Shown: positions 11,861 through 29,973 of the stretch, piece after piece | Layout: each line of letters begins with the position of its first letter | How positions within the stretch are numbered: position 1 is the stretch's first letter | NCBI GenBank assembly: GCA_965552055.1 | Contig: CBEVQO010000005.1 | Span: 79,597-143,596 of the forward strand | DNA length: 64,000 nucleotides | Reading direction: 5' to 3' | Origin: an uncultured bacterium | GTDB taxonomy: Bacteria; Hydrothermota; UBA3073; NMUJ01; CBEVQO01 | Position numbers and translations under genes: made by a program | Notes under the pieces: model-generated | Seen by the model: only the letters and a program-made list of their open reading frames with translations | Databases searched by the model: none | What the model was told of the DNA's origin: nothing

Positions 11861-12055
<195 letters not shown>

Positions 12056-12056
12056 A

Positions 12057-12227
12057 ATGTCGATAGACCCTGATTTGTTGAAAATATTAGCATGTCCGAA
12101 ATGTAAAGGTGATCTGGAATACGATGAAGAGAACGATAGATTAATCTGTCGCAACTGCAAACTCGCATACAGGATAGAAGACGGGATTCCAATCATGCTG
12201 ATTGATGAAGCCGAGCAAATTGAGTAG
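12057..12227 (+). CDS. Trm112/YcaR (UPF0434) family small zinc-ribbon protein
   Basis: A 56-aa ORF that is not in the supplied ORF track because it is under 60 aa. It translates to MSIDPDLLKILACPKCKGDLEYDEENDRLICRNCKLAYRIEDGIPIMLIDEAEQIE, with the CPxC...CxxC pattern and the LxCP and GIPxML hallmarks of Trm112p-like proteins. Confidence 0.7.
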   Translation: MSIDPDLLKILACPKCKGDLEYDEENDRLICRNCKLAYRIEDGIPIMLIDEAEQIE

Positions 12228-12984
12228 AACCTACCAGCTGAACAAAGATAGATTCTTTTCATTTTTGCTAAAACTTTCTGAAGATTTTAAAATTTATTAT
12301 CCTGTTAAAATTAAAGATGGAATTTACTTTGAGAAATTTAAGCCCAACAAATCGCCCGAGCCTTATTTTTCAGGGATAAGAGCAGTTGAGCCTGTATCGA
12401 TTTTCTTCACGGGTAAGCCAGAAGAGAAAAGAATAATAATGGGTGTAAAAGCATGTGATATCGCAGGGCTTAGAGTTCTTGATAAAATAATAAAAGATGA
12501 AAATTACCATAAAATGAGGAAAGAAACAATTCTTGTGACAGCCGATTGCCCTTTTCCCGAGGAAACATGCTTCTGCAATTTAAGAGGAATAGAGCCATAT
12601 TGCGATGAAGATGCAGATATCGTAATAAGTCCCCTCGGAGATAGATATCTGTTACAGGCGATATCCGATAGGGGTAAAAAAATAATAGATAAAACAAAAA
12701 ATATCCTTTCAATAGCGACAGAAAGTGATATTGCAGAAAAATTAAGAATAAGAAAAGAAGCTAAAGAAAAACTAAAAGTCATAAATGAAAGAGAATTTAA
12801 AAGCATAAAAGAGAATTGTGTTCGGTGTTTCGGCTGTAGATATATCTGTCCTACATGTTATTGTGAAGAAAAAGTTTGTTCTTTTGAAGAGAGAATAGAA
12901 TGCAAAGCAGAGAATTGCACTGGCTGTGGAAGATGCATATCTGTGTGTCCAGGGATGCTCGATATAAGGAGTTATCTCAAATGA
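12202..12984 (+). CDS. HydB/AsrA-like iron-sulfur subunit (sulfhydrogenase beta-subunit family), short paralog
   Basis: C-terminal CVRCFGCRYICPTCYC and CTGCGRCISVCP ferredoxin motifs. The N-terminal region is colinear with the 19165 HydB-like protein. The start is uncertain because it overlaps the Trm112-like gene. Confidence 0.65.
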   Translation: MMKPSKLSRTYQLNKDRFFSFLLKLSEDFKIYYPVKIKDGIYFEKFKPNKSPEPYFSGIRAVEPVSIFFTGKPEEKRIIMGVKACDIAGLRVLDKIIKDENYHKMRKETILVTADCPFPEETCFCNLRGIEPYCDEDADIVISPLGDRYLLQAISDRGKKIIDKTKNILSIATESDIAEKLRIRKEAKEKLKVINEREFKSIKENCVRCFGCRYICPTCYCEEKVCSFEERIECKAENCTGCGRCISVCPGMLDIRSYLK

Positions 12985-14396
12985 AATGCAGGTTTTGTAA
13001 TCTCGGTTGTGAACTCGATTTAATAGATAGGGATAATAGAAAAATAATAAGTTATAAAGAACCACTTTGTCCAAGAGGAAATGCGATACCCTTATTACTT
13101 GAGTCAGAAAACAGGTTAAAAGAGCCAATTGTAAATGGTAAAGAGGCGAACTGGGAAAAGGCTTTGAGAGAAGTTTATTTGATATTGAAGTCCTATAAAG
13201 GTGATGAAATTGCGATAACTTTTGATATAGGGCTGAAGGACAAAGATTATGCTTTGTGTAGAGGATTCGCAAAATCTTTCAATGCAAAAAATGCTTCGTC
13301 ATTTTTGTCAGAAGAATATTATCTTAATTATTCAATAAAGGATGAAAAAAATGCAGGTCTTGAGGATGTAATAAAATATGAAAATTTTATCGTAATAGGG
13401 GATATTTTCTCTTATATTCCTAAGATTGCAAAGTATTTGATAAGGAAAAATCTTTTTGTCATTGACAGTTATTATTCTGCTGTTGCGAAGTTTTCTTCAA
13501 AATTTGTGAAAGTGAGAAATTGCACACAATCCATTTTTTTGATGGGATTACTTTCTTTAAAAAAGGAAATAGATGTTGATATTGACCTTATTTGTGATGT
13601 TTGTCAGGTAGATAAAAAAGCGATTCTGGATTTTTATAAAGGTTTGCAGAATAAAGATTTTTTGGTAATTTATGGCAGATGGTTTTTTAATTCATTAAAT
13701 CCCGTTTTTGATGCTCTATTTCCTCGCTATTTTGCGAAAAAATTTGGTTTTAAATCTTTCTGCATACATACAGAAAAGAGCCAAATAGGTGAAAATGATT
13801 TTGTCCAGATCTTAAAAGATATTGATGAAGGGAAGATAAAAGTTTTGATAAATTTTGGGGATACCCTTTCTTATTATCAGCAGTTGAAAAAATACTTTGA
13901 CAAACTTGAGCATCTTATTCTTATACAGACAGAAAGAACCGATTTAAAAGCAGATGTAATATTACCTTTGGAGGTTACCAGAATAATATCAGAATTGAGT
14001 TCCCGTTTGAATAAGAAAGTGGAAGAAGTTCCTTCAGGAAAAAAGGAGATAAAAGAAAGCGAGTTAGAAGAATATGGTAAAGAAGTTTTAAAAGGAGTTT
14101 TTCCCGATATAATATGCATTGACGATGCATATGGTTTTCGAAAAGTTTTTACAAGAAAAAACAGGATATTTTTATCTCCAACTTTTGCAAAGAAAAATGG
14201 AATAAGAAGAGAAGCGCTTTTAAAGACATCCAGAGGTGAATTTGAAGTGGAAGTTGTTTTCAAAGATGAACTGGAATCCGGAATTATAGTGGATACTTCC
14301 GATGTTTCCATCCGTAAATTTTTTGAAATGATGATTGACAAAGACAGGGATTTTGTAATATTTAAGATAGAAGGCTTTAAGTTATGCAAAAAGTAA
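12981..14396 (+). CDS. Molybdopterin-oxidoreductase (formate dehydrogenase alpha)-like protein, short and divergent
   Basis: The N-terminal Fe4S4 domain pattern is CRFCNLGCEL...(27 aa)...CPRG, and RLKEPIVNGKEANWEKAL matches the formate dehydrogenase alpha-subunit N-terminal region. At 471 aa it is much shorter than a catalytic FdhH/FdhA, and the distal part is low-complexity. Its start overlaps the upstream stop as ATGA. Confidence 0.5.
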   Translation: MKCRFCNLGCELDLIDRDNRKIISYKEPLCPRGNAIPLLLESENRLKEPIVNGKEANWEKALREVYLILKSYKGDEIAITFDIGLKDKDYALCRGFAKSFNAKNASSFLSEEYYLNYSIKDEKNAGLEDVIKYENFIVIGDIFSYIPKIAKYLIRKNLFVIDSYYSAVAKFSSKFVKVRNCTQSIFLMGLLSLKKEIDVDIDLICDVCQVDKKAILDFYKGLQNKDFLVIYGRWFFNSLNPVFDALFPRYFAKKFGFKSFCIHTEKSQIGENDFVQILKDIDEGKIKVLINFGDTLSYYQQLKKYFDKLEHLILIQTERTDLKADVILPLEVTRIISELSSRLNKKVEEVPSGKKEIKESELEEYGKEVLKGVFPDIICIDDAYGFRKVFTRKNRIFLSPTFAKKNGIRREALLKTSRGEFEVEVVFKDELESGIIVDTSDVSIRKFFEMMIDKDRDFVIFKIEGFKLCKK

Positions 14397-14755
14397 TTGG
14401 CATAAATTCTTCTCTTTGTATAGATTGTGGTTCATGTGAATCTGCGTGTTATTCTCGTTTTTATGAAAAGCGTCTTCACAGGAATTATCCCTGCAAGCAT
14501 TGTTCATCGCCACCGTGTGTAATTGTCTGTCCTACAGGTGCTCTTAGAAAGCAAAATGGAGTAGTTTATCTTCATAAATTTTTATGCGTGGGATGCAAAA
14601 GCTGTGTTTTTGCGTGTCCCTTTGGTGTGCTCGAGGATTTTGTGAATAAAGGGAGTATTCAGAAGTGTGATTTATGCAAAGATGAGGGCATGCCAAAATG
14701 CGTCGAAAGTTGCCCTACTTCTGCACTTTTTCTAAAAAATGAGGAAAAGATTTAA
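14384..14755 (+). CDS. HycB/HydN-like multi-cluster 4Fe-4S ferredoxin
   Basis: Four Cys clusters (CIDCGSCESAC, CKHC..PPCVIVCP, CVGCKSCVFACP, CDLCKD...CVESCP). Confidence 0.8.
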   Translation: MQKVIGINSSLCIDCGSCESACYSRFYEKRLHRNYPCKHCSSPPCVIVCPTGALRKQNGVVYLHKFLCVGCKSCVFACPFGVLEDFVNKGSIQKCDLCKDEGMPKCVESCPTSALFLKNEEKI

Positions 14756-15707
14756 AAAAAATACCTTCGAGAGAATTTTAACCCATTACACTTACAGACA
14801 GATACCCTTTTTATTGCAAAAAATATGCGGTAAACTGTCTTTTTCTTATTCTCTTTCTTTTTGTATTGCTGTGGAAAATATCATTGGTATAGAAGTGCCT
14901 TTAAGGGCGAAGTTTATAAGGACTATTTTTTCGGAGATTGAGAGGATAGAGTTTCATCTTATATGGCTTTCTTTTCTTGCGAAATTTTCTTTTTCTGAAA
15001 GAATTTTTTTAAAATTATTCTCTTTGCGCGATAAGATTAACGAATTGAAGGATTTTTTGTCAAAAGGTGTTGCGATAATAAACACGATCGGCGGGGTAAG
15101 GGTAGATATAGAAGCATGTGATGAAGTTTTTGTGAGTTTAAGAGAATTTGAGAGGAATTTTTCTATTGCAGTAGATTTTTTTAATAGCAATTTTTTCAGA
15201 AGATTATCGAAAGGTTTGGGTTTTTTAAGTCGAGAGATTGCCGAAAAATATGGTGTGAAGGGGGTAGTTGGCAGGGCGTCGTGCATCCGGGAGGATGCCA
15301 GAAAACATTGTGATTACGGGGTTTACGGGTTAATCGAATGGAATGTGGCAACTTGTGAAGGGGGAGATGTATTTTCGAGGACAAAAGTATTGATTCAGGA
15401 AATATTTGAATCTTTGAAAATCATAAATCAGTGCTTTAATAAAATCGAAGGGGAAAAAATTTGTGTAACGGTAAAAAAAATACCACCTGGAGAAGGCAAA
15501 GGGATAGTAGAATCACCTTTTGGTGAAATACGGCATTGTGTTTTATCCGATGGCTCAAATGTTCCTAAAAAATGTGAGATAATGGATGCTTATGAAAATA
15601 TGACTCCGTTGATGAAAGAGATAGTAGAAACCCGTGTTTATGAAGAGAAAATGTTAGCATTAAGTTCTTTTTATCCTTTCTTTTACTTTTATCGATATGA
15701 AATTTAA
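14739..15707 (+). CDS. [NiFe]-hydrogenase large-subunit (NuoD/HycE)-like protein lacking most Ni-Fe cysteine ligands and the N-terminal ~50 aa
   Basis: It is clearly homologous to the bona fide large subunit at 24876. Compare ICGKLSFSYSLSFCIAVENIIGIEVPLRAKFIRTIFSEIERIEFHLIWL with [49 protein letters not shown], and KIPPGEGKGIVESPFGEIRHCVLSDGSN with EVPPGEGIGTHEAPRGEVFHYVKSDGSN. In the RxCGxC motif only the first Cys is kept (CGKL), and there is no C-terminal DPCxxC. Confidence 0.6.
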   Translation: MRKRFKKNTFERILTHYTYRQIPFLLQKICGKLSFSYSLSFCIAVENIIGIEVPLRAKFIRTIFSEIERIEFHLIWLSFLAKFSFSERIFLKLFSLRDKINELKDFLSKGVAIINTIGGVRVDIEACDEVFVSLREFERNFSIAVDFFNSNFFRRLSKGLGFLSREIAEKYGVKGVVGRASCIREDARKHCDYGVYGLIEWNVATCEGGDVFSRTKVLIQEIFESLKIINQCFNKIEGEKICVTVKKIPPGEGKGIVESPFGEIRHCVLSDGSNVPKKCEIMDAYENMTPLMKEIVETRVYEEKMLALSSFYPFFYFYRYEI

Positions 15708-16107
15708 TGAAAAAAATTGTGTGGGTTGCGGTGTATGTGTGAGGATGTGTCCTTTTAATGCTCGTGAAATGTTCGATGATTTGGAAAATGGCATAAGGAA
15801 GCTTAAATTTTATCCCGAAAGATGCAGGAGATGTGGTTTATGTAAAGAAGTTTGTATAAATTCTGCAATAAATGAAGAAGGCGGAGTAGATGAAATTAAA
15901 AAAGAGTTAGTATTTTGTGATAAATGTGGTGCTGTTTTGACAACGCGTGCACATTTATTTTACATAATAAATAAGTTAAAAGAGAAGTATTATGCAAATC
16001 AAACTTTGAGGAGAATATCAGCGGAAAATATGGGAATTGAAACCAGAGATTTAAAACTTTGTCCTTTATGTTTAATGGAAGAGTATAAGAAAGTGAGGGC
16101 GATATGA
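15697..16107 (+). CDS. NuoI/HycF/MbhN-like 2x[4Fe-4S] subunit
   Basis: CVGCGVCVRMCP and CRRCGLCKEVC motifs. Its tail (CDKCGAVLTTRAHLFYIINKLKEKYY) parallels the 32889 NuoI-like protein (CDRCGEVISTKQHLLWLAHKLGEMAY). Confidence 0.75.
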   Translation: MKFNEKNCVGCGVCVRMCPFNAREMFDDLENGIRKLKFYPERCRRCGLCKEVCINSAINEEGGVDEIKKELVFCDKCGAVLTTRAHLFYIINKLKEKYYANQTLRRISAENMGIETRDLKLCPLCLMEEYKKVRAI

Positions 16108-19100
16108 AAAAATATTTGATTGTACTTTTTGTGTGTTTAAATGTAGAGGCGCTTACCCTTAAGAATCCATTTGACATGCCCAAAAAAGGCATCTGGTATC
16201 GCAAACCTGGTATAAAAGCGGTTGACGGGATAGGATTGATGGTGGGTTATCCTCTTTCTTCTGTTCGTATTTTTAAATATTCCCTTGGATATCAATTGAA
16301 GTATTTACCGATGCTTGGGGTTGGCTGTGCATTCTGGGAAGGGCTTTGTTACTATAATTATAGCGATTCCCTGTGCAGTTCGCTTTTTCCAGTGTATTTT
16401 TATCTGGTAAATGGTTATAGTCCTTATCGTGATAAGAAAGCAAAAGACTGGTCCTGCAGGCCTGTTCTTTACACCTATGTGTCTTTTTCCATGTGGTCAA
16501 GTTTGAGGTATCACAGCAAAAGGGATGGTGCTTTTATAAGAGGGGGACTTGCTTTAAGATGGAATTTTGGTACATTTTCTTATGGCTTGGAAGCGGGTGT
16601 GTTTAAAATATGGTCTAAAAATGGTTTTGATACCGGTATAAAATTTTATTTTGGATTGATAGGTGGCTGGGGTGGATGGCTGGGTCTTGGTGTTAAGAAA
16701 TTTTATCCTCCTAAATTTGTGCCAGAAGTTGTAATAGAAGATTCTACAGGAGATGGAGTTTTTACACCATCAGAGAAAGGAAAAATAATTTTAAAAGTAA
16801 AAAATGAAGGAAAAGGACCTTCTTTGAAATTGAAAATATTTCCCGAAATTTTAACAGAACAATTTAAAGATGCGATAAAGATAGGCAAATTTAAAATGGT
16901 TAAAAGAATAAAAGTGGGTGCTGAACATCAATGGGAAGTGCCTTTGCGAACAGAATGGTTTTTACCTGAGGGCGAATGTGAAATTGCATTTAAAGGTATA
17001 GATGCAAAGTTTAATAAAATGGAAGTGAGGACGAAAATCAGGGCACAGAGAACACCTCCTCCAGAGTTATATGTTGAATTCAAAGATAAAACAGGTGATG
17101 GAATTTTAACGGGAGAAGAATCAGGAGAGATAAAGGTGAGTGTGCAAAATGTTGCGAGAACAACCCTTTACGGCATAAAATTGATATGCCGTCCGGATAA
17201 AGATTTGCAAAAATATATTTCGGTTAAAAAATCGGTGGTAATAGGAAAATTATCACCCCGTAGAAGAAAAGAAGCAAAATTTGATTTAAGAAGTTTACAT
17301 TCATTACCAACGGGTGAATTTAAATTAACAATTGTTTGCAGGGATGCCCGTGGTAGAGAAAATAAAGAAGAGATTACTATAAAAACACAGAAATTACCTG
17401 CACCTGATTTCGAAGTAGAATTCGCCGACCCCAATAATTCAGGCTATCTTGAAGCAGGAGAAGAAGCAGAAATTTTGCTTAAATTTAAAAATAAATCAAT
17501 AGGCACTAATAAAAACATAGTTGTTAATCTATCTTTAAAAGAGAAAAAATTCGAAAAACATATTGAAATACCCGAAAAAGTGAAATGCGGAGATATATTG
17601 AGCGGTAAAGAAAAGAGGATACCCGTTAAAATAAAAGCTGGCTTTTATCTACCCGATGGTGAGATAACAATTGTTGCAAGGGGTAAAGATGACCTTGACA
17701 ATACTTTTGAAAAAGAGTTAAAAATAAGGACAAAGAGTGTGGTGCTACCGGAAATGATAGTAGAATTTAGGGACGAAAACAAAAACAGTGCACTTGAACC
17801 ATCTGAAAAGGGTAATATTTTTGTTGTTTTGAAAAATAGATGGGCGTTGCCGAATAGAGGTATAAAATTGAAATTGAATATTAAGGAGTTAAAATTCCAG
17901 AAAGAAATTATTTTGCAAAAGTTTATAAATGTTGGTACAATAAAACCGGGTGCTGTTTGCAGTACCAGGGCATTTATCGTTGCGAAGCCCACGCTACCGG
18001 AAGGCGAGTTTACGATAAAAATAGAAGGAGAAGATTTTAAAGGTAATAAATTTTCGAAAGAGATAACCATACCCACTCGAAAAATCCTTGCACCTGAGCT
18101 ATCCGTATCTTTTGCTGATGCATCCGGGGACGGTATTTTTGATGCAGGTGAAGAGGGGGTATTGAAACTGAAGTTGAAAAATGTAAGTGGATTAAAGCAT
18201 CAAGATGTTGTTATGGAAATAAAGGTAAAGGAACATAAATTTGCTAAAGATTTGAAGTTTCAGGATAAAGTGAATATGGGTGACCTTTTACCTGATGAAG
18301 AGAAGGAGAAAGAAATAAAGATAGTGGCTAAAAAATCTTTGCAATCAGGTGAATTTACTTTACTTATAAAAGGAGAAGATAAACTTGGTGTTAAATTTTC
18401 GGAAGAACTTACTATAAGAACAAAAGCACTTCCGCCTCTTGCGCTAACACCAAGATTAATAGATGAAAGGAAAGATGGTGTGCTTGAAGCAGGTGAGAAA
18501 GCAGAATTTCATCTCGAAATAACGAATTCAACTCCCGTTAAATTAACAGGGATAAAAGTTTATTTAATGCCCGATGTAAAGATAGCAAGGTATTTAAAAT
18601 TTGTAAAAAGCAAATCTGTTGGCTCAATGGAACCCGGTGCTACAGATAGCGTGAAATTACCGGTTAGAGCATTTTATAACATCAGGGAAGGAGAATTTCC
18701 TTTAACATTTAAAATCGAAACCGCAGAAGGAATAAAAGCCGAAGGGAAATACCTGTTGAAAACCAAAAAAGCGTATCCACCTGAAATGTATGTGAGATTT
18801 GAAGACGAATCAAAAGATGGTGTGCTTTCGCCGGGTGAAAAGGGAGAGGTAAAAATAAGTTTCAAAAATACATCTTTTGTAAGATTTTCAAATGTTAGGC
18901 TAACATTTAACATAAAAGAGATAAGATACAGGAAATTGGTAAAAATTCAATCTTCCAGAAAGATAAAGATAGAGCCACAATCTGAGGAAGAAATAGCAAT
19001 ACCTGTGAGCACGAAGAAAAAAATAAAAGAAGGACAATTTACCATCGCTATAGATTACGAGGATGAATTCCATCATAGAATAAAACGGGAAATAAAAATC

Positions 19101-19115
19101 GAGGTAAAAAAATAA
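16104..19115 (+). CDS. Surface protein: N-terminal ~200-aa aromatic-rich putative beta-barrel region followed by ~8 tandem CARDB-like Ig-fold repeats
   Basis: Signal peptide. The N-terminal segment is rich in alternating aromatic and Gly residues (GLIGGWGGWLGLGV). Then come repeated ~115-aa units starting P(E/D)hxVEFxDxxxDGxLxxGExGxhxhxhKN, typical of CARDB domains. Confidence 0.6.
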   Translation: MKKYLIVLFVCLNVEALTLKNPFDMPKKGIWYRKPGIKAVDGIGLMVGYPLSSVRIFKYSLGYQLKYLPMLGVGCAFWEGLCYYNYSDSLCSSLFPVYFYLVNGYSPYRDKKAKDWSCRPVLYTYVSFSMWSSLRYHSKRDGAFIRGGLALRWNFGTFSYGLEAGVFKIWSKNGFDTGIKFYFGLIGGWGGWLGLGVKKFYPPKFVPEVVIEDSTGDGVFTPSEKGKIILKVKNEGKGPSLKLKIFPEILTEQFKDAIKIGKFKMVKRIKVGAEHQWEVPLRTEWFLPEGECEIAFKGIDAKFNKMEVRTKIRAQRTPPPELYVEFKDKTGDGILTGEESGEIKVSVQNVARTTLYGIKLICRPDKDLQKYISVKKSVVIGKLSPRRRKEAKFDLRSLHSLPTGEFKLTIVCRDARGRENKEEITIKTQKLPAPDFEVEFADPNNSGYLEAGEEAEILLKFKNKSIGTNKNIVVNLSLKEKKFEKHIEIPEKVKCGDILSGKEKRIPVKIKAGFYLPDGEITIVARGKDDLDNTFEKELKIRTKSVVLPEMIVEFRDENKNSALEPSEKGNIFVVLKNRWALPNRGIKLKLNIKELKFQKEIILQKFINVGTIKPGAVCSTRAFIVAKPTLPEGEFTIKIEGEDFKGNKFSKEITIPTRKILAPELSVSFADASGDGIFDAGEEGVLKLKLKNVSGLKHQDVVMEIKVKEHKFAKDLKFQDKVNMGDLLPDEEKEKEIKIVAKKSLQSGEFTLLIKGEDKLGVKFSEELTIRTKALPPLALTPRLIDERKDGVLEAGEKAEFHLEITNSTPVKLTGIKVYLMPDVKIARYLKFVKSKSVGSMEPGATDSVKLPVRAFYNIREGEFPLTFKIETAEGIKAEGKYLLKTKKAYPPEMYVRFEDESKDGVLSPGEKGEVKISFKNTSFVRFSNVRLTFNIKEIRYRKLVKIQSSRKIKIEPQSEEEIAIPVSTKKKIKEGQFTIAIDYEDEFHHRIKREIKIEVKK

Positions 19116-19164: not shown

Positions 19165-20154
19165 ATGAAGACCCTGTTCTGTTACAAGGATGTTTTTAGA
19201 GAGTTTTTAAAGAAGTTATCCTGCAGATATAAAATTTTTGCTCCTGTTGAAGGCATTTTTGGTACTTCTTTTGAGCAGCTTGATGAAGATAATATTGATA
19301 GGATTCGCTTATTTGATGCTCGTTTGTCACAATCACTTAAATGGTTTTTCTATCCGCCTTTTGAATGTGTAACAGAAGAAGCAAAAGCAGAAGATTTTAT
19401 AGTGATAGGAGCAAAAGCATGCGATATAAAGGCTTTAAAAATACTTGATAATGTGTTTATTGGTGGAGATTATGTTGATGATTTTTATAAATCAAAAAGA
19501 GAAAAGGGTATAATAATTGCTTGTGATTGCACTGAGCCTTTGGAATATTGTTTTTGCATATTGCTGGGTGATAAGCCATATGTTGAAGAGGGTGCTGACC
19601 TATCGATTTCCGAGGTCCCACGGGGATACATAATAGATGTTTTGACGGAAAAAGGAGAGAATTTAATTCGTGGATTGAATTCAAGAGAAGCAGAAAGGAC
19701 AGAAATTGAGCAAAGGGAGGACAATAGAAAAAAAGTTATAGAAAAATTAAAAGAGATAAATAAGAAATTCAAATCCCTTGATAATGTTCGTGATATTATA
19801 AAAGATTTATATGATAGTGAAGTGTGGCGTGAATATAGTGAGAGATGTGTTGAATGTGGTGCATGCACAATGGTATGTCCATCCTGTCATTGTTTCCTTT
19901 TACAGGAGAGTGTTGTCAGGGAATTTGGCAAAAACAGAGTTTGGGATTCATGCCAATATACCGGGTTTGCAAGGGAAGCAGGAGGTGCCAATCCTCGTAA
20001 AGAAGTATTTGAGCGCCTGAGAAACAGGTATTATTGTAAGTTCCAGTATAAGCCCGAGAATTTTGACCTTGTTGCGTGCACTGGCTGTGGTAGATGTGTT
20101 GCGGCGTGTCAGGGTGGGATTGATATGAGAGAGGTTTTGAGCAAGATGCTATGA
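19165..20154 (+). CDS. Sulfhydrogenase beta-subunit (HydB/AsrA)-like iron-sulfur protein
   Basis: CVECGACTMVCPSCHCF and CTGCGRCVAACQ motifs. 329 aa. ATGA coupling to the downstream gene. Confidence 0.75.
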   Translation: MKTLFCYKDVFREFLKKLSCRYKIFAPVEGIFGTSFEQLDEDNIDRIRLFDARLSQSLKWFFYPPFECVTEEAKAEDFIVIGAKACDIKALKILDNVFIGGDYVDDFYKSKREKGIIIACDCTEPLEYCFCILLGDKPYVEEGADLSISEVPRGYIIDVLTEKGENLIRGLNSREAERTEIEQREDNRKKVIEKLKEINKKFKSLDNVRDIIKDLYDSEVWREYSERCVECGACTMVCPSCHCFLLQESVVREFGKNRVWDSCQYTGFAREAGGANPRKEVFERLRNRYYCKFQYKPENFDLVACTGCGRCVAACQGGIDMREVLSKML

Positions 20155-21020
20155 GCATTTATAAGCCAATAAGAGCAAGGGTAGAGAAAATAGTTGATGA
20201 GACACCAAACATTAAAACATTTACACTTGTGCCAGAAAAGGAGATATCTTTTAAAACCGGTCAATTTATAGCACTTACTGTGCCAAAAGTAGGAGAAGCT
20301 CCTTTTACCCCTTCATCTTCACCTTATCAGAAAGATAAATTTGATGTTACGATAATGAAAATCAATTATAGAACAAGAGAAGGATTTGAGTATAAAGGTT
20401 ATGTTACTAATGCGATTCACAATTTGAAAGAAGGAGATGTTGTTGGAGTGAGGGGTCCTTATGGTCGTGGTTATCCTGTTGATAAGATGTATGGTAAAGA
20501 GATTTTGATAGTAGGTGGTGGTGTTGGCATGGCACCTTTGAGGTCTTTTCTTTTGACAGTTTTGCATGATATTGATAAATTTAAGAGGGTTATTTTATGT
20601 TACGGAGCAAGGACTCCCAAAGATATAGTTTATAAGAAGCAATTTGAAGAAGAATGGATGAAAAACGAAAGGTTAGAGGTTTACAGAAGTGTTGACAAAG
20701 CAGATGAAACTTGGCGAGAAGTTGAAGGAGTAGTTACTGTTTTACTTGATCAGTTTAAACCCGGTGATAAAAAAGCAATAAATCCGGATGAGTGTATATC
20801 TGTGGTTTGTGGTCCACCTATAATGATGAAATTTACGGTTAAAAAGCTGGTTGAAGATTTGAAGTTAAAGCCTGAAAATATTTATTTGTCTATGGAAAAG
20901 AATATGTCATGTGGCTTGGGTAAATGCGGTCACTGTCAGATAGGCAAATATTATGCATGTAAAGATGGTCCGGTATTTGCATATTCAGAAATAATGGATA
21001 TACCGGGGATATGGGAATGA
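20151..21020 (+). CDS. Sulfhydrogenase gamma-subunit (HydG/AsrB/PyrK)-like FAD/NAD(P)-binding oxidoreductase with C-terminal [2Fe-2S]
   Basis: FNR-like fold (ILIVGGGVGMAPLRSF, GPP motif) and a C-terminal CGLGKCGHCQIGKYYACKDGPVF cluster motif. Confidence 0.8.
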   Translation: MSIYKPIRARVEKIVDETPNIKTFTLVPEKEISFKTGQFIALTVPKVGEAPFTPSSSPYQKDKFDVTIMKINYRTREGFEYKGYVTNAIHNLKEGDVVGVRGPYGRGYPVDKMYGKEILIVGGGVGMAPLRSFLLTVLHDIDKFKRVILCYGARTPKDIVYKKQFEEEWMKNERLEVYRSVDKADETWREVEGVVTVLLDQFKPGDKKAINPDECISVVCGPPIMMKFTVKKLVEDLKLKPENIYLSMEKNMSCGLGKCGHCQIGKYYACKDGPVFAYSEIMDIPGIWE

Positions 21021-21424
21021 AATCAAAAATTGTAGAGAAGGTTCGTTTTACAAATTTTGTTGATAAAGAAAAGGTAGTGGAAGCCGATGCTTTAATTGAT
21101 ACAGGTGCTACTATTTGTGCTTTACCGAAAGATATGGTTGAGAAATTGGGCTTACAGAGATTGAGGAAAGCAAAAGTCCGCCATGCTGATAATAGAGTAG
21201 CGGAAAAAGATGTTTACGGTGTTGTAACTATAAGGATTCTCAACAGAGAAGGTGAGTTTAATGTTGTATGTGAGGAAGAGGGTACCCAGCCCTTGATTGG
21301 CTTAACGGTTTTGGAGCAATTAGATTTAATGATTGACCCATCGAGGAAATGTGTGATACCCAACCCAAGGTCAGGTGATTTACCTGTAGTTGATTTAATA
21401 AGCCATGAAGCGAATATTTATTGA
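21017..21424 (+). CDS. Retropepsin-like (clan AA) small aspartic protease, paralog 1
   Basis: ALIDTGATICALP carries the D-T-G-A catalytic motif. ~135 aa. The distal IGLTVLEQLDLMIDP region is retropepsin-like. ATGA overlap with the hydG-like stop when started at the 21017 ATG (the ORF-track start is 21011). Confidence 0.6.
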   Translation: MKSKIVEKVRFTNFVDKEKVVEADALIDTGATICALPKDMVEKLGLQRLRKAKVRHADNRVAEKDVYGVVTIRILNREGEFNVVCEEEGTQPLIGLTVLEQLDLMIDPSRKCVIPNPRSGDLPVVDLISHEANIY

Positions 21425-21863
21425 TCTGGAGAAGTGTTATAAATGCGAGAAGTGTGTAGCCAGGTGCAACTATCCGTATCATCCGGATAATAATGGGGTG
21501 CTGAAACTGATAGAAATGGGTGTGAGGGAAACCGTTTGCAGAAAATGTGAAGATGCTCCCTGTATAAATGCATGTCCAAACGAAGCTCTTGAAAGATTAG
21601 AAGATGGAAGAGTTAAAAGGTATAATATGAGGTGTACTGGATGTGGCACATGTGTTGTTGCATGTCCTTTTGGTGTTATTTTCCATGAAATAATAACCTA
21701 TTATGATTCGCAATGTGATTTCTGTGAAGGAAGGGAACCTTTATGTGTGAAGACATGTCCTCATGGTGCGATAAAATATGAAGAGGTTGAAGAAGAGCCC
21801 GAAAAAAGGGTTTATGTTATTGGAGATAAATTTGCTGTTCATGCAATGGGGTGGGAGAGATGA
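21405..21863 (+). CDS. HycB/HydN-like 4Fe-4S ferredoxin (electron-transfer subunit)
   Basis: Four Cys clusters (CYKCEKCVARC, CRKCEDAPCINACP, CTGCGTCVVACP, CDFCEG..CVKTCP). Confidence 0.8.
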   Translation: MKRIFIDLEKCYKCEKCVARCNYPYHPDNNGVLKLIEMGVRETVCRKCEDAPCINACPNEALERLEDGRVKRYNMRCTGCGTCVVACPFGVIFHEIITYYDSQCDFCEGREPLCVKTCPHGAIKYEEVEEEPEKRVYVIGDKFAVHAMGWER

Positions 21864-22780
21864 AGTGGCTATTTGATTTTGTGGTATTTCCTGGCTTTGT
21901 ATTTACTGCGGTAATTGGGTGTATAGTCAAGTGGTTTGACAGGAAGCTTACTGCGAGGATACAGTGGCGGGTTGGTCCACCTTTTTTACAGCAGTTTTAT
22001 GACTTTATAAAACTTACTGCGAAGGAAACGATAATACCAAAAGGTGCAGGTGCTACATTTGTATTGCCTCCGATTATAAGTGTAGTAGCAGTTACTATTG
22101 TGTCAACATTGATATGGAAAGCGATATTAAATCCCGAGCAGACATTTGTTGGTGACCTTATCGTTGTGATTTATTTCCTTATGGTTCCTAATATTTGTGC
22201 GATAATAGGGGGTGCTGCTTCTCGCAATCCTTTGGCTTCTTTGGGTGTAAGCAGGGAGTTGAAGCTGTTACTTGCTGACGAGTTGCCCTTTATTCTTGCT
22301 GCATTTGTACCTGTTATAAAGGCACATACAATTAGACTTGGAGAGTTACTTACATGGCAATGGAATAATGAATTGTTTATTGCTTCTGCATCAGGTATTA
22401 TTGCATTTCTCGTAATTTTAGCGTGTATGCAGGCGAAACTTGCTTATCAGCCATTTGACATTCCTGAGGCAGAGACAGAGATAATAGCAGGTCCTTATAC
22501 TGAGTATTCTGGTGTGCTTCTGGGTCTTTTCCTTTTATCTCGCTGGATGCTGTTATTTGCACTACCCATGTTTGTAGTTGTTATGTTCCTTGGTGGCATT
22601 AAATTTTCTGGCTGGCATACTCTCTGGGGTATTTTGAAGTATATAGGATTGCTGATTTTGATAATAGTGGTTAAGAATACGAATCCGAGGATAAGGATAG
22701 ATCAGGCTCTTAAATTTTTCTGGTGGGGTGTTACACCTCTTGCTATTTTGTCTGTTGTTCTTGCACTATTTGGTTTGTAA
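21860..22780 (+). CDS. NuoH/MbhM/HycD-like membrane subunit of the group-4 hydrogenase
   Basis: RKLTARIQWRVGPP signature of NuoH-family subunits and ~8 TM helices. Start chosen at the ATG that overlaps the upstream stop as ATGA. The ORF track uses the GTG at 21851. Confidence 0.85.
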   Translation: MKWLFDFVVFPGFVFTAVIGCIVKWFDRKLTARIQWRVGPPFLQQFYDFIKLTAKETIIPKGAGATFVLPPIISVVAVTIVSTLIWKAILNPEQTFVGDLIVVIYFLMVPNICAIIGGAASRNPLASLGVSRELKLLLADELPFILAAFVPVIKAHTIRLGELLTWQWNNELFIASASGIIAFLVILACMQAKLAYQPFDIPEAETEIIAGPYTEYSGVLLGLFLLSRWMLLFALPMFVVVMFLGGIKFSGWHTLWGILKYIGLLILIIVVKNTNPRIRIDQALKFFWWGVTPLAILSVVLALFGL

Positions 22781-22887
22781 TGCGAGCGTTAGCGAGCTCA
22801 TTTCATATGGGTTTTTTGTCGCACCCGAGCGAAGCGAGGGTTGCGCAAATGGGAAGGTGGGGACTGGGAGGCGGGGCTAAAAATATC
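22781..22887 (-). repeat. GC-rich intergenic repeat, compact inverted copy (R1) of the family also found at 33947 and 45537
   Basis: The reverse complement contains TTAGCCCCGCCTCCCAGTCCCCACC, a CGCAACCCTCGC core, and GCTCGCTAACGCTCGCA. These match the head, core and tail motifs of R2 and R3. Confidence 0.7.
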
Positions 22888-22914
22888 TTGACAAAGTTAT
22901 ATTTTGATTATAAG
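22888..22914 (+). promoter_or_regulatory. Internal promoter-like element TTGACA-N15-TATAAG upstream of the NuoB-like gene
   Basis: Same architecture as the other promoters in the window. It lies between repeat R1 and the ATG at 22922. Confidence 0.45.
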
Positions 22915-22921
22915 AAGAGCC

Positions 22922-23338
22922 ATGGGTATTAAGATTGGTGCTTTAAAGAGGTCTATATGGCTTTTTCATTTTAATTCGGGTTCATGCAATAACTGTGATA
23001 TTGAGATTGTTGACTGTTTAACTCCTCGGTATGACATTGAGAGATTTGGCTTGAAACTTGTAGGTAGCATTCGTCATGCTGATGTTCTTGTAGTAACGGG
23101 TTTTGTCAGCCGTCAGAGTGCTATTCGTTTAAAGAGGTTGTGGGAGATGATGCCAGAGCCTAAGTTTGTTGTAGCAGTTGGTACCTGTGCGTGTTCTGGT
23201 GGTATTTTTGCAGAATCCTATCATATGGCGGGTCCTGTTGATAAGATAATACCTGTTCATGCTTATATACCAGGTTGTCCGCCCAAGCCGGAAGCTATAA
23301 TTTCTGGTATTGTGAAATTGTTGAACACTTTAAAATGA
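22922..23338 (+). CDS. NuoB/MbhJ-like [NiFe]-hydrogenase small subunit (group 4)
   Basis: CNNCDIEI, GTCACSGG and IPGCPP cysteine motifs for the proximal 4Fe-4S cluster. Start set at the ATG (MGIKIG) downstream of the promoter element. The ORF-track start at 22904 lies inside the promoter. Confidence 0.85.
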   Translation: MGIKIGALKRSIWLFHFNSGSCNNCDIEIVDCLTPRYDIERFGLKLVGSIRHADVLVVTGFVSRQSAIRLKRLWEMMPEPKFVVAVGTCACSGGIFAESYHMAGPVDKIIPVHAYIPGCPPKPEAIISGIVKLLNTLK

Positions 23339-23712
23339 GTGAAATCAAAGTTATGGAGGATTTACTGAAAGAGGCAAAGAAATATATTGAAGAGGGTAAT
23401 GTTGTTCAGGCGAGCGAGAAGATTTATAAGGTGATAGAGGAAGGCATTAAGTTTTTATCGAGCAGGGATGGAGTTCCTGAATATTCTGTTGCGCAGAAGG
23501 AAGGCAGGTGGTGGACGCATTTACTTGGTAAGGCAGCTGTTCGACTTTCTAAAAAATATAATGAACAGATGATAAATGATTGCTGGGCAAATGCCTATGA
23601 CCTTCATGTATGGGGTTATCACGAAAGGAAATATGATATGGATACGGTTAAACCTAAATTGAGATATGCAGAGTGGATGCTTGAATTTGTAAAGAAGGTG
23701 TCAAATGAGTGA
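23335..23712 (+). CDS. Small helical protein, family X copy A (tentatively PaREP1/HEPN-like)
   Basis: ~125 aa. EAKKYIEEGNVVQASEKIYKVIEEGIKFL...LHVWGYHER motifs. The start overlaps the NuoB-like stop as ATGA. The longer ORF-track start at 23275 is rejected. Confidence 0.55.
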   Translation: MSEIKVMEDLLKEAKKYIEEGNVVQASEKIYKVIEEGIKFLSSRDGVPEYSVAQKEGRWWTHLLGKAAVRLSKKYNEQMINDCWANAYDLHVWGYHERKYDMDTVKPKLRYAEWMLEFVKKVSNE

Positions 23713-24085
23713 GGAGATAAAAGTTATGGAAGAGTTGCTGAAGGAGGCAAAGAAATATATTGAAGAGGGTAATGTTGTTCAGGCGAGCGAGAAGATTTAT
23801 AAGGTGATAGAGGAAGGCATTAAGTTTTTATCGAGCAGGGATGGAGTTCCTGAATATTCTGTTGCGCAGAAGGAAGGCAGGTGGTGGACGCATTTACTTG
23901 GTAAGGCAGCTGTTCGACTTTCTAAAAAATATAATGAACAGATGATAAATGATTGCTGGGCAAATGCCTATGACCTTCATGTATGGGGTTATCACGAAAG
24001 GAAATATGATATGGATACGGTTAAACCTAAATTGAGATATGCAGAGTGGATGCTTGAATTTGTAAAGAAGGTGTCAAATGAGTGA
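23705..24085 (+). CDS. Small helical protein, family X copy B (identical to copy A at nucleotide level except the first ~25 nt)
   Basis: Tandem duplicate with an 8-nt ATGAGTGA start/stop overlap. Confidence 0.55.
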   Translation: MSEEIKVMEELLKEAKKYIEEGNVVQASEKIYKVIEEGIKFLSSRDGVPEYSVAQKEGRWWTHLLGKAAVRLSKKYNEQMINDCWANAYDLHVWGYHERKYDMDTVKPKLRYAEWMLEFVKKVSNE

Positions 24086-24458
24086 GGAGATAAAAGTTAT
24101 GGAAGAGTTGCTGAAGGAGGCAAAGAAATATATTGAAGAGGGTAATGTTGTTCAGGCGAGTGAGAAGATTTATAAGGTGATAGAAGAAGGCATTAAGTTT
24201 TTATCGAGCAAGGATGGGATACCAGAGTATTCTGTTGCGCAGAGAGAAGGCAGATGGTGGATGCATTTGCTTAGTAAGGCATCTCGTCGTCTTTCTAAAA
24301 AATATAATGAAGATGAAATTTATCATGTGTGGAGTGTTGCGTATGATTTGCATGTATGGGGCTATCATGAAAGGAAACTTGATATAGAAGATGTTAAGCC
24401 AAATATTAAATATGCGGAGTGGATGCTTGAATTTGTGAAGAAGGTGTCAAATGAGTAA
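24078..24458 (+). CDS. Small helical protein, family X copy C (~80% identical to A and B)
   Basis: Third tandem copy, with the same 8-nt overlap into the NuoC-like gene. Confidence 0.55.
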   Translation: MSEEIKVMEELLKEAKKYIEEGNVVQASEKIYKVIEEGIKFLSSKDGIPEYSVAQREGRWWMHLLSKASRRLSKKYNEDEIYHVWSVAYDLHVWGYHERKLDIEDVKPNIKYAEWMLEFVKKVSNE

Positions 24459-24879
24459 GATTGATAAAATAAAAGAAAAGTTTGAGAAAGAGATAAAAAA
24501 GATAAAAAAAGTTGGTGAATTTGAATATTTTATTGATATTGACAGAAGAGATTTGCTTAAAGTGGTTGATTATATTTTTAACGATTTAAAAGGCAGATAC
24601 AATATTTTGTCTGCAACGGATCTGGAAGAGGGTTTTGAGATCCTTTATCATTTTAGTTTTGATGAAGAAGGTAAAAGGGTTACTTTGAGGGTGATGCTGT
24701 CTCATGAAAATCCAGAAGTTGAATCGATAAGTAGTATTGTAAAAGGTGCGCAATGGATAGAGAGGGAGATTATGGATTTACTTCCTATTAAATTTTTGAA
24801 TCATCCTGATCCTCGCAGATTTATCTTATCCGATGATTGGGAAGAGGGGGTATATCCTTTGAGAAGGGAGAAGAGATGA
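24451..24879 (+). CDS. NuoC/MbhK-like hydrogenase subunit
   Basis: EILYHFSF...RVTLRVML and the AQWIEREIMDLLPIKFLNHPDPRRFIL NuoC signature. Confidence 0.8.
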   Translation: MSKIDKIKEKFEKEIKKIKKVGEFEYFIDIDRRDLLKVVDYIFNDLKGRYNILSATDLEEGFEILYHFSFDEEGKRVTLRVMLSHENPEVESISSIVKGAQWIEREIMDLLPIKFLNHPDPRRFILSDDWEEGVYPLRREKR

Positions 24880-26087
24880 AAAGGGTGATACCGATAGGCC
24901 CTTATCATCCATTACAGGAAGAAGCGGAGTTTTTCCAATTATATGTTGAAGGTGAAACGGTAGTTGATGTTGACTGGAAAACAGGTTTTAATCACAGGGG
25001 GATAGAGAAAATTTCACAATCGCTTTCTTATGATCAAGTTGCTTTTCTTGTGGAGAGAGTTTGTGGGATATGTTCCACTTCTCATCCGATTGCCTATTGT
25101 AATGCTGTTGAAGAGATATGTGGTATTGAGATACCTGAGAGAGCAAAGTATATAAGGAGCATAATAGGCGAATTGGAGCGTATACATTCGCATTTATTGT
25201 GGCTGGGGCTCGCAGGTCATTTTATTGGATATGACACACTGTGGATGTGGGCATGGAAATACAGAGAGCCTGTTCTCGACATCATGGAGATGATAACGGG
25301 AAATAGGCAAAATTATGCAATGATGAAGCCAGGGGGCGTTAGGAGAGATATCGATGAAGATAAGATACCTGATATTAAAAAAGTTTTAAATAGTTTGAAA
25401 CCTGTTCTTGAAAAGTTTGCCAAAATTGCAATGGATGATCCTGTTTTGCATGCTCGCACAAAGGGTGTTGGTATATTGACAAAGGAAGAGGCACATAATT
25501 TTGGGGCAGTGGGTCCTACTGCGAGGGCATCTGGCTTAAAAATAGATGTGAGGTGTGATTTTCCTTATGCTGCTTATCCTCTTGTTGAATGGGAAGTTAT
25601 AACAACGGAAAATGGAGATGTTTTTGATAAAATTGTTGTAAGAGTGCTTGAGATGATAGAATCTGTTAAAATAATTGAGCAATGTCTTGATAGGTTGAAA
25701 GAAGCGAAAGGAGAGATTGATGCAAAGATAAAGGAAGTTCCACCTGGTGAAGGTATAGGGACTCATGAAGCTCCAAGGGGTGAGGTTTTTCATTATGTAA
25801 AGTCAGATGGCAGTAATAGACCTGTGAGGCACAAAATAAGGGCACCGAGTTATTGTAATGTTCCGACATTTAAAGTTACATGCGTTGGATATCAGGTTGC
25901 TGATGCGGTTATTGCGCTTGCAGCGGTTGACCCTTGTTACAGCTGTACTGAAAGGATGGAAGCGATAGTTGATGGCAAAAGGATTTTAAAGTGGAGAGAT
26001 TTGATAAGGATGAGCAGGCAGAAGACAGAAAAGATAAAGGCAGAGGTTGGCAGGGATTTTCTTTTGAAAGAAAAACCCGAATTGTGA
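24876..26087 (+). CDS. Group-4 [NiFe]-hydrogenase large subunit (NuoD/HycE/MbhL-like) with intact Ni-Fe ligands
   Basis: N-terminal ERVCGICSTSH (RxCGxC) and C-terminal DPCYSCTER (DPCxxC). After the cleavage-site Arg there is a ~43-aa C-terminal extension. Start at the ATG with a GGGAGAAGAG ribosome-binding site and ATGA overlap with the NuoC-like stop. Confidence 0.9.
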   Translation: MKRVIPIGPYHPLQEEAEFFQLYVEGETVVDVDWKTGFNHRGIEKISQSLSYDQVAFLVERVCGICSTSHPIAYCNAVEEICGIEIPERAKYIRSIIGELERIHSHLLWLGLAGHFIGYDTLWMWAWKYREPVLDIMEMITGNRQNYAMMKPGGVRRDIDEDKIPDIKKVLNSLKPVLEKFAKIAMDDPVLHARTKGVGILTKEEAHNFGAVGPTARASGLKIDVRCDFPYAAYPLVEWEVITTENGDVFDKIVVRVLEMIESVKIIEQCLDRLKEAKGEIDAKIKEVPPGEGIGTHEAPRGEVFHYVKSDGSNRPVRHKIRAPSYCNVPTFKVTCVGYQVADAVIALAAVDPCYSCTERMEAIVDGKRILKWRDLIRMSRQKTEKIKAEVGRDFLLKEKPEL

Positions 26088-26491
26088 TGGATGTAATAAA
26101 AGAAATGGAAGTAAGTTTATATTGTGACGGAAAAAGTAGTAAAAAGATGAGATTATATTTTGATAGTGGCTCACCTTATACTTTTATAAAAAAGTCGAGT
26201 GCAGAAGCGATAGGAGGTATTTTTAAATTACCATCTGAAGAAAGATTCGTTGGACTTGGAGGCGGCGGATTTATAAGTGCGGAAGCACAGCATCTTCATA
26301 TAAAGGTTTCAAATGTATGGTGCGCGCATTTTGTTTATGTGATTGATGATGCTATTTTCAAAGATGAGTATGATATGCTTGTTGGTCATGATTTTATGCA
26401 AAAATATGGTATAAAGGTGGTGCCTCATACAGGTGATATTGAGATAGATGAGGTTAGATTGAAATTATCGCAAACTGTGAGGATGGTATGA
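26087..26491 (+). CDS. Retropepsin-like small aspartic protease, paralog 2 (D-S-G-S variant)
   Basis: YFDSGSPYTFI aligns with the DTGA and DTGS motifs of paralogs 1 and 3. The ATG overlaps the large-subunit TGA by 1 nt (TGATG). Confidence 0.5.
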   Translation: MDVIKEMEVSLYCDGKSSKKMRLYFDSGSPYTFIKKSSAEAIGGIFKLPSEERFVGLGGGGFISAEAQHLHIKVSNVWCAHFVYVIDDAIFKDEYDMLVGHDFMQKYGIKVVPHTGDIEIDEVRLKLSQTVRMV

Positions 26492-28281: not shown

Positions 28282-28823
28282 ACCTTTATATCATAATTGG
28301 GATTATGATTTTAAGTGCCATAATTGCTCTTGAAGTACGGGACCTTATTTCTTCGATTATATGTGCTGGTGTGTGTGGTTTTGCACTTGTTTTTGTGTTT
28401 CTGCGTTTACATGCACCTGACCTTGCGGTCGTTCAAATGATTGTGGAAACTCTATCTTTAATAATTTTAATAGCAGCAATTTTGAGGACTACAAGAGAAG
28501 ATGTTCAGGAAGGGATTTCATTTAACAAAGTAATTTTGTATCTTGGAGGACTATTTTTTGTGATAATATTTATGATATTTGCATATAATGTTATAAATGA
28601 TATGGCGAAGTTTGGAGAGCCATATTTGAGAATGTCTTATCCTTATATTGAGCAAGGTGTTAGAAGTTTATTCAATGGTGGTCCAAAAGTTGCGAATATT
28701 GTGGGAGCTGTTCTGCTTGATTTCAGGGGATATGATGCACTTGGATGTGCTACAGTGCTGTTTGCCTCTGCGATAGGTGTTCTTGTAGTTTTGAGGAAAA
28801 TAGGTAGAAAAAAGGATGTTTAA
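28275..28823 (+). CDS. MbhD/MrpA-C-terminal-like (DUF4040-type) small membrane subunit
   Basis: 182 aa with 4-5 TM helices, located in the Mrp module. Confidence 0.55.
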   Translation: MVDLYIIIGIMILSAIIALEVRDLISSIICAGVCGFALVFVFLRLHAPDLAVVQMIVETLSLIILIAAILRTTREDVQEGISFNKVILYLGGLFFVIIFMIFAYNVINDMAKFGEPYLRMSYPYIEQGVRSLFNGGPKVANIVGAVLLDFRGYDALGCATVLFASAIGVLVVLRKIGRKKDV

Positions 28824-29626: not shown

Positions 29627-29973
29627 TTTATTATTTGCTTGGAATATTGCTTTTTGCGATAGGGCTGTATGGAGTGCTTACAAAGAGGAATCTATTTAAA
29701 ATAATAATTGGCTTGCTGATAATAGAATATGCTGTATTTTTGATGTTTGCACTTGTGGGATACAGAGAAGGAGGCATTGCTCCTGTTTTTGTGAAAGGCT
29801 TATCAGCAGGAGATGCGATACAAAAAATGGTTGACCCTATTCCTCAATCACTGGCTCTAACTGTGATGATTATTGGATTGGGTGCTATTGCATTGATATG
29901 TGCACTTGCCGTAAGGATTTATGAAAAATATGGTACACTCGATGTCAGGAAAATTAAGAAATTAAAAGGATGA
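29623..29973 (+). CDS. MrpC/NuoK-like membrane subunit
   Basis: 116 aa with three TM helices. YLLGILLFAIGLYGVLTKRNLFKIIIGLLIIEYAV is typical of NuoK/MrpC. Confidence 0.8.
   Translation: MIYYLLGILLFAIGLYGVLTKRNLFKIIIGLLIIEYAVFLMFALVGYREGGIAPVFVKGLSAGDAIQKMVDPIPQSLALTVMIIGLGAIALICALAVRIYEKYGTLDVRKIKKLKG

Follow-up and report, generated by a model that had tools for sequence, protein, structure and literature searches.

A putative soluble iron–sulphur module with a NuoD-like protein that lacks the NiFe site in an uncultured Hydrothermota bacterium

What becomes of the electron-transfer arm of a group 4 [NiFe] hydrogenase when its active site, its small subunit and its membrane subunits are missing? 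The question is raised by five adjacent genes at positions 12202-16107, on the forward strand, of a 64,000-nucleotide (nt) stretch of DNA, hereafter the window, from an uncultured bacterium of the Hydrothermota (GenBank assembly GCA_965552055.1, contig CBEVQO010000005.1, positions 79,597 to 143,596). The original prediction, made from the letters of the window, read these genes as a degenerate counterpart of the soluble arm of a formate hydrogenlyase (FHL) with a ligand-less large subunit, lying upstream of a functional operon and either decaying or repurposed. Our analysis favours a soluble module that has been retained for iron–sulphur (Fe-S) electron transfer and in which the NuoD-like protein is a scaffold devoid of cofactor and perhaps dispensable, a reading to which we give an even chance of being correct. 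The five genes, which overlap their neighbours by 4-17 nt, are listed below.

12202 (or 12205 or 12265, the start codon being ambiguous)..12984, + strand: HydB/ShyB/AsrA-like Fe-S subunit, 260 amino acids (aa); NCBIfam HydB, ShyB and AsrA (NF040833, 6e-17)
12981..14396, + strand: short molybdopterin-oxidoreductase-family (FdhH-like, MopB-like) protein, 471 aa; full-length homology to the 550-aa family P0019-P0021
14384..14755, + strand: CooF/HycB-like ferredoxin, 123 aa, with four Cys motifs; Pfam Fer4_11
14739..15707, + strand: NuoD/HycE-like large-subunit homolog, 322 aa; Complex1_49kDa (2.7e-29) and NiFeSe_Hases (2e-6), with NCBIfam matches
15697..16107, + strand: NuoI/HycF-like 2x[4Fe-4S] subunit, 136 aa; NCBIfam matches to the formate-hydrogenlyase Fe-S subunit and HyfH

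The open reading frames (ORFs), Pfam and NCBIfam bear out the gene order and the family assignments that had been predicted. Four of the five assignments are confirmed directly by Pfam and NCBIfam, the exception being the 471-aa MopB-like protein.

Ligands and fold of the module proteins

The large-subunit homolog had been expected to lack its N-terminus, to keep one Cys of RxCGxC and to have no DPCxxC, and the alignment agrees on each point. Its L1 motif reads KICGKL against the RxCGxC of true enzymes, and YPFFYF stands at the C-terminus in place of DPCxxC, leaving one of the four NiFe cysteines. The conserved arginine of the PRGE motif is also substituted (SPFGE). Four residues precede the HRG-motif position, compared with 37 in true large subunits and 37-43 in all non-fused, non-fragment homologs compared. 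The cysteines are not hidden in an alternative register, as had been considered, for the missing NiFe motifs are absent from every forward frame of 14000-16500.

The AlphaFold2 model of the NuoD-like protein has a predicted local distance difference test (pLDDT) score of 88.7 and a predicted template modelling (pTM) score of 0.90. In Foldseek it reaches template modelling (TM) scores of 0.84-0.89 to the complex I 49-kDa subunits, which are its best structural matches, and to HycE (7z0s_E); HycE is also the best sequence match in the PDB (108 bits). On this model, the protein keeps the large-subunit/NuoD fold without the NiFe site. A search of ~15 billion proteins returned no ortholog other than that of a sister strain, which is 98% identical. 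An exhaustive HMMER search of 1.84 billion representative proteins gave 2806 matches at E <= 0.001; after the sister strain, the next best stood at 35-39% identity, and the other ligand-poor homologs that it recovered, Ehr-like and others, all keep the N-terminal domain. A word-index search likewise found no ortholog apart from the sister strain and nothing above 39% identity.

Measured against the group 4 [NiFe] hydrogenases, the module has the NuoD fold and lacks both the four NiFe cysteines and a NuoB-like small subunit. No NuoB, NuoC, NuoH, HydG or Mrp gene is present among the ORFs of 12202-16107, and tblastn with HydG, NuoB, NuoC and NuoH retrieves the downstream copies only, with no remnants in the module. 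When NuoB of the homologous operon L002 is the query, the sole match in the window is at 22928-23332, inside the downstream operon. The predicted absence of a small subunit and of any membrane subunit is thus upheld, as is the view of the module as hydrogenase-derived and non-hydrogenase: judged from its sequence, the module cannot be a hydrogenase.

Could the truncations and missing cysteines be sequencing, assembly or frameshift errors in a normal operon, an option that the original prediction had left standing? A second, independent strain assembly (GCA_964419125.1, L001) shows all five genes again and runs collinear with the window for 15.1 kb at 99.3% identity and with zero gaps, and the MopB-like gene recurs at 100% identity on a Joint Genome Institute (JGI) contig (L007). 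No alternative frame contains the missing motifs. Between ~9.2 kb and 34 kb every ORF is on the forward strand and there is hardly any intergenic space, leaving no gaps in which genes could hide. We regard an artefact as practically excluded.

Where the NiFe ligands are gone, the Fe-S ligands are kept. The ferredoxin-like protein conserves 16 of 16 cysteines and 29 of 35 invariant positions, the NuoI-like protein 12 of 12 cysteines, and the HydB-like protein 15 of 16 invariant cysteines and 39 of 64 invariant positions. At 30-42% overall identity, the chance expectation for such Fe-S cysteine retention is ~1e-6 and ~3e-6, whereas the NiFe cysteines were lost at about the background rate. With its four Cys motifs the ferredoxin-like protein can bind up to four [4Fe-4S] clusters. 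By ligand count, the cysteines for ~9-10 clusters are retained: FS0 of the MopB-like protein, four in the CooF-like ferredoxin, two in the NuoI-like protein and two or three in the HydB-like protein.

All five proteins are shorter than their counterparts. The HydB-like protein has 260 aa against 329-347, with ~70 aa missing between its two cluster motifs; the MopB-like protein has 471 against 550, the ferredoxin-like protein 123 against 152-159, the NuoD-like protein 322 against 392-403 and the NuoI-like protein 136 against 206-214. The last does not have the N-terminal extension, ~40 residues long, that is present in its paralog.

In complex I and Mbh, the N-terminal segments of NuoD- and NuoI-type proteins face NuoB, NuoC and NuoH. 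The loss of these termini from the module proteins would fit a detachment from the membrane arm, because it is towards the partners of that arm that they face. The same losses bear on a different reading, in which the module proteins replace their paralogs on the downstream NuoB/NuoC/NuoH/Mrp arm to give an Ehr- or Mbx-like, non-H2, ion-translocating oxidoreductase. Such a subunit swap would suit the position of the module near a complete operon on the same strand and the duplication of exactly the electron-path subunits (HydB, ferredoxin, NuoD and NuoI), and ligand-poor large subunits have precedents in the Ehr and Mbx complexes (PMC6349859). However, the NuoD-like protein is without the ~37-residue N-terminal domain kept by every other homolog examined, ligand-less ones included, and the missing NuoI-like extension, the replaced PRGE arginine and the relaxed selection on the NuoD-like gene described below also speak against it. 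We consider the swap quite improbable.

The MopB-like protein and the relation to MopB-type operons

The MopB-like protein has the length that was predicted (~470 aa), with zero Pfam matches and a weak NCBIfam match to the N-terminal part of the formate dehydrogenase alpha subunit (8e-4). It aligns at 30% identity over 97-100% coverage to the 550-aa family P0019-P0021, whose members carry the Molybdop_Fe4S4, Molybdopterin and Molydop_binding Pfam domains. Its distal half, earlier taken for low-complexity sequence, aligns to the C-terminal domains of that family. The N-terminal CxxCxxxC...C [4Fe-4S] motif is retained. In a profile alignment with PDB sequences, N-A-S-S-F-L-S-E occupies the Mo-ligand position, where formate dehydrogenases have C-A-R-L-Sec/Cys-H-S (Sec, selenocysteine); the Sec or Cys ligand with adjacent His that marks an FHL is accordingly missing. 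Because the 550-aa family shares the Cys/Sec-less position (F-A-S-S-Y-L-E-P), the missing ligand is a family trait and not a product of local decay. Deletions in the window protein fall in segments that align to the cofactor-contacting loops of formate dehydrogenases.

These features also frame the possibility that the protein is a catalytic soluble enzyme, binding Mo- or W-bis(pyranopterin guanine dinucleotide) through a non-Cys ligand such as the Ser-Ser of N-A-S-S-F/Y-L, with the other four proteins wiring it to ferredoxin. The family as a whole shares the A-S-S where the ligand would lie, the 550-aa relatives still match Molybdopterin and Molydop_binding, and the MopB-like gene is the most constrained of the module (one nonsynonymous to eight synonymous substitutions). 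Against this, none of the Pfam models for MopB recognises the protein of the window, its deletions lie where the cofactor-contacting loops align, and NuoG offers the case of a MopB domain that persists without cofactor. The AlphaFold2 model is unusable (pLDDT 53.5), and no substrate could be assigned to the family in earlier work (PMC6349859). We consider a catalytic role quite improbable.

Relatives of the MopB-like protein sit only in MopB-type operons (L002, L003, L004 and L008), whose order is HydB(342)-HydG(271)-MopB(550)-Fd(156)-NuoH-NuoB-NuoC-NuoD-NuoL-Mrp...-NuoI, where Fd is ferredoxin and lengths are in aa. The module has this order minus three blocks, namely HydG, NuoH/B/C and Mrp. 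Supplementary Note 5 of PMC6349859 reports the operon type from Saganbacteria RX5A, and related ones from Zixibacteria and Omnitrophica, under the name of an "enigmatic" group-4 hydrogenase; besides genes similar to asrA, asrB and cooF, it encodes a molybdopterin protein that defied classification. The gene string had been said to mirror the soluble FHL arm; it is instead collinear with these AsrA/HydB-AsrB/HydG-MopB-CooF-NuoH-B-C-D-Mrp-NuoI operons. A genome-collection scan with the MopB-like protein gave only a spurious Pontibacter fragment, and a metagenome scan gave one further MopB-type operon and the same organism. In the window, tblastn finds the MopB-like gene as a single copy, the sole MopB gene.

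The comparison must also take in the operon that begins about 3 kb downstream of the module.

19165..33946, + strand: complete Mbh-type group-4 [NiFe] hydrogenase operon, HydB-HydG-Fd-NuoH-NuoB-NuoC-NuoD-Mrp-NuoI-HycI, from ORFs and homology

Its large subunit carries both NiFe motifs intact, RVCGIC and DPCYSC. Among proteins of solved structure, Pyrococcus furiosus MbhL (6cfw_L) is the nearest homolog of this subunit, which shares 75-79% identity with its counterparts in L010 and L012 and 60% with that in L002. By gene content, the downstream operon is complete and belongs to a sister subfamily without MopB, because its closest relatives, L010 and L012 (HydB-HydG-Fd-NuoH...), have no MopB gene. 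For the module it could be a source of paralogs and a possible docking partner.

Two of the module proteins score closer to the MopB-type operons than to this neighbour. The ferredoxin-like protein is 42% identical to the MopB-type ferredoxin and 38% to the downstream one, with bit scores of 90-92 and 58-71, respectively. The HydB-like protein is 29-30% identical to HydB of both subfamilies, with 136-145 bits against the MopB type and 111-115 against the downstream type. The NuoI-like protein is 35% identical to its downstream paralog, and module proteins as a whole are 29-38% identical to their downstream paralogs. A 2-residue insert is absent from the module, as it is from the MopB-type subfamily.

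The NuoD-like protein scores the other way, with 186-195 bits against the downstream type and 157-160 against the MopB type, and its best match anywhere beyond the sister strain is the downstream NuoD. The gap may reflect only a slower evolution of the downstream-type large subunit. A mosaic origin, with a MopB-type front half and a downstream-type NuoD-like gene, may be suggested by these bit scores, the diagnostic sites being divided 12 against 10 between the two subfamilies.

Two other origins were set aside. A recent tandem duplication of the downstream operon is ruled out by the 29-38% identity, by the MopB-type affinity of the ferredoxin-like and HydB-like proteins and by the absent 2-residue insert. 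Reciprocal loss, in which the downstream operon gave up its MopB gene to the module, is ruled out by L010 and L012, which never have one. The earlier notion of the module as a paralog, now in decay, of the operon that lies 3 kb downstream does not hold in that simple form, given the same identities, the MopB-less relatives and the MopB-type scores.

By gene order and homology, the module is a derivative of the AsrAB-MopB-CooF-Mbh/Mrp operon type and not a member of it. This origin is probably sound, being supported by collinearity, the full-length MopB homology, the ferredoxin-like and HydB-like scores, the lack of leftover gene fragments and the overlapping junctions.

Selection, decay and a proposed function

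Whether the module is retained or decaying was addressed through the substitutions between the window and L001. With the NuoD-like gene set apart, the module shows two nonsynonymous to 12 synonymous changes (p=2e-7 against neutrality), and the MopB-like gene, the most strongly constrained, contributes one to eight (p=1.8e-5). The NuoD-like gene shows six to five (neutrality p=0.055), and a Fisher test sets its substitutions apart from those in the remainder of the region (p=0.010). Judged from these counts, four module genes are under purifying selection and the NuoD-like gene is relaxed. The original choice between decay and repurposing therefore divides by gene, with retention for the four and, for the NuoD-like gene, a pattern not separable from neutral that points to relaxation.

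Several observations weigh against a retained module. The near-neutral NuoD-like gene is the first of them, together with its retention of 63 of the 181 positions (35%) that are invariant among five true large subunits. The selection test covers two strains and only ~25 substitutions in the module. Module genes are AT-drifted, with GC content at first codon positions of 0.37-0.39 against 0.46-0.51 downstream, and their products are rich in Phe, Tyr, Met, Ile, Asn and Lys. Inspection revealed a Shine-Dalgarno sequence ahead of neither the NuoD-like nor the NuoI-like gene. In database and metagenome searches the module is known from one species-level lineage only. At both its ends the proposed wire is without any catalytic site that could be recognised and without a subunit that binds NAD(P)H, and the MopB-like model came from an alignment of four sequences and is unusable, as noted.

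Much of this would be expected of a non-functional remnant, in which the genes for the membrane subunits, the small subunit and the flavoprotein disappeared from a second MopB-type operon and the five leftovers decay slowly, their ORFs still open owing to a recent release from selection or to read-through in a long transcript. The loss of the catalytic ligands and of all partner subunits agrees with such a remnant, as do the NuoD-like substitutions, the AT drift, the missing Shine-Dalgarno sequences, the restriction to one lineage and a MopB-like protein that falls below all Pfam thresholds while its relatives stand above them. Yet the proteins are 29-42% identical to every homolog, and all five ORFs remain open, with no stop or frameshift in 3.9 kb despite an off-frame stop density of ~0.1 per codon. 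The Fe-S cysteines were retained while the NiFe cysteines were lost, four genes show the excess of synonymous changes given above, the junctions overlap cleanly, the deleted genes left no fragments, and the NuoD-like fold is confidently predicted. We consider a remnant unlikely, but a serious rival.

Returning to the retained Fe-S module, we propose that it derives from the cytoplasmic part of a group-4 operon of the AsrA/HydB-AsrB/HydG-MopB-CooF-Mbh/Mrp kind and is a streamlined form particular to this lineage. Its products would form a soluble contact chain of MopB-like protein, ferredoxin, NuoI-like protein and NuoD-like protein. A soluble sub-complex is suggested because the retained families touch in series in FHL (FdhF-HycB-HycF-HycE) and because the N-termini are gone. 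With ~9-10 [4Fe-4S] clusters, the chain could act as a hydrogenase-independent electron conduit, in which the NuoD-like protein would be a mere cofactor-less scaffold under relaxed constraint, perhaps in the course of being lost. Candidate partners are the upstream 60-aa ferredoxin, on grounds of adjacency only, and/or the HydG flavoprotein encoded downstream. The stricter proposal of a free-standing soluble complex, where a metal-less large subunit scaffolds a ~10-cluster wire that ends in a cofactor-poor MopB domain, we hold to be unlikely. Such a complex could have a new redox function, such as ferredoxin-linked electron storage or transfer to the flavoprotein of the neighbouring hydrogenase.

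A functional module would show that selection can preserve the peripheral arm of a group-4 hydrogenase even after its separation from both the small subunit and the membrane arm, which bears on the assembly of modular complex I-type machines and on the conversion of catalytic subunits to scaffolds. The locus also carries a caution for annotation, as automated calls of NADH-quinone oxidoreductase subunit D, formate dehydrogenase and hydrogenase would overcount hydrogen and formate metabolism. Its significance is limited by its restriction to one species-level lineage.

Neighbouring genes and comparison with known systems

Three further genes lie beside the module, two before it and one between it and the downstream operon.

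11873..12055, + strand: single-cluster ferredoxin, 60 aa; Pfam Fer4_13 and Fer4_15; conserved in L001
12057..12227, + strand: Trm112p-like zinc-ribbon protein, 56 aa, between the ferredoxin and the module; Pfam PF03966, 2.8e-17
16104..19115, + strand: predicted secreted protein with immunoglobulin (Ig)-like repeats, 1003 aa; weak Ig-like Pfam matches; conserved in L001

The 1003-aa protein has a signal-peptide-like N-terminus and many Ig-like repeats, and the start of its gene overlaps the NuoI-like stop (ATGA). Its gene is under purifying selection between the two strains (four nonsynonymous to 14 synonymous), and it probably lies outside the function of the module. A strong Shine-Dalgarno sequence (aaggaggggg) precedes the 60-aa ferredoxin gene, and one is also present before the MopB-like gene, the downstream NuoD and the downstream NuoI. 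A promoter and terminator scan did not rise above shuffled sequence, so that operon boundaries could not be set with it, and an Rfam search of the window gave zero matches.

The downstream operon has features of its own. Between its NuoB and NuoC genes lie three tandem 373-bp units (23333-24456, 92% matches), each encoding a PaREP1-family protein (Pfam 1e-29 to 1e-31; ORFs 23275-23712, 23705-24085 and 24078-24458), and a fourth PaREP1 gene (28816-29217) stands among the Mrp subunits. Three retropepsin-like aspartic-protease genes (gag-asp_proteas, Asp_protease_2 and Peptidase_A2B families) are also inside the operon, at 21011-21424, 25991-26491 and 29970-30332, and one of them occupies the exact position of MopB in MopB-type operons. 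Neither the PaREP1 nor the retropepsin-like insertions occur in L010 and L012; in the window, the two kinds of gene have been repeatedly co-inserted into one respiratory operon. Directly after the NuoI-like gene, L010, which is the nearest relative of the downstream operon, has HdrC/B/A-like and FlpD/MvhD-like genes (13543-17144), where the window has a HycI-type maturation protease (33506-33946). In L001, a 100-N scaffold gap (15137-15236) falls in the downstream HydB (window 19875-20303), hence the gene is uncalled there; it is not a deletion. Elsewhere in the window, three very large secreted proteins (42-3077, 45969-47966 and 57566-60724) carry C-terminal type IX secretion system (T9SS) type A sorting domains (TIGR04183, 1e-10 to 2e-9). 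From these domains, the low-GC (~35%) organism may be placed among the Bacteroidota-related (FCB) bacteria.

In very large databases the architecture of the module appears unique, and its closest likeness is to the enigmatic MopB-type operon. The two share the order of the retained genes, a four-motif CooF-like ferredoxin, a HydB/AsrA-like subunit and a short MopB protein, not assignable to formate dehydrogenase or Nap, in which FS0 is the only cluster and the Cys/Sec ligand is missing. The MopB-type operon, however, has AsrB/HydG (FAD/NAD(P)-binding), NuoH, NuoB, NuoC and all of Mrp, which the module lacks, and its large subunit is ligand-complete, whereas that of the module is without NiFe ligands and N-terminal domain. 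Each module protein is put at 20-35% shorter.

The Ehr-like label that had been offered as one option fits in part. Like Ehr and Mbx, the module has a group-4-type large-subunit homolog short of NiFe cysteines, and its role is presumed to be electron transfer and not H2 turnover. Ehr is described as a membrane-bound complex with NuoB/NuoH-like and Mrp antiporter-like subunits (PMC6349859). Ehr as well as Mbx sits in the membrane and includes subunits like NuoB, NuoC, NuoH and antiporters, none of which the module has, and the large subunits of both retain the N-terminal domain that the NuoD-like protein of the module has lost. The module thus falls outside the definition of Ehr.

With Escherichia coli FHL (FdhF-HycB-HycF-HycG-HycE; PDB 7z0s, 7z0t), the module shares the same four families in the same order of physical neighbours. 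It differs in having no HycG small subunit, NuoC-like domain, HycC/HycD, Sec/Cys-Mo site or NiFe site, in having the additional HydB/AsrA-like subunit and in an ancestry that is Mbh/Mrp-type and not Hyc-type, the downstream NuoD being closest to MbhL. The comparison suggests for the module the part that the peripheral Fe-S arm plays in FHL, in Mbh or in complex I.

Complex I provides the nearest parallel for cofactor loss, as its NuoD and NuoG are large-subunit and MopB folds that persist without cofactor in an Fe-S arm. To our knowledge, NuoD of complex I always partners NuoB (cluster N2) and NuoH to form the quinone site and keeps its N-terminal beta-sheet. The NuoD-like protein of the module, by contrast, has neither the beta-sheet nor the quinone-site loop, no NuoB or NuoH accompanies it in the module, and it is not strongly conserved, as NuoD and NuoG are. 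On the stricter proposal of a free-standing complex, which we hold to be unlikely, the module would be a natural and independent replay of the step that turned subunits of hydrogenase and formate dehydrogenase into NuoD and NuoG, the non-catalytic parts of complex I.

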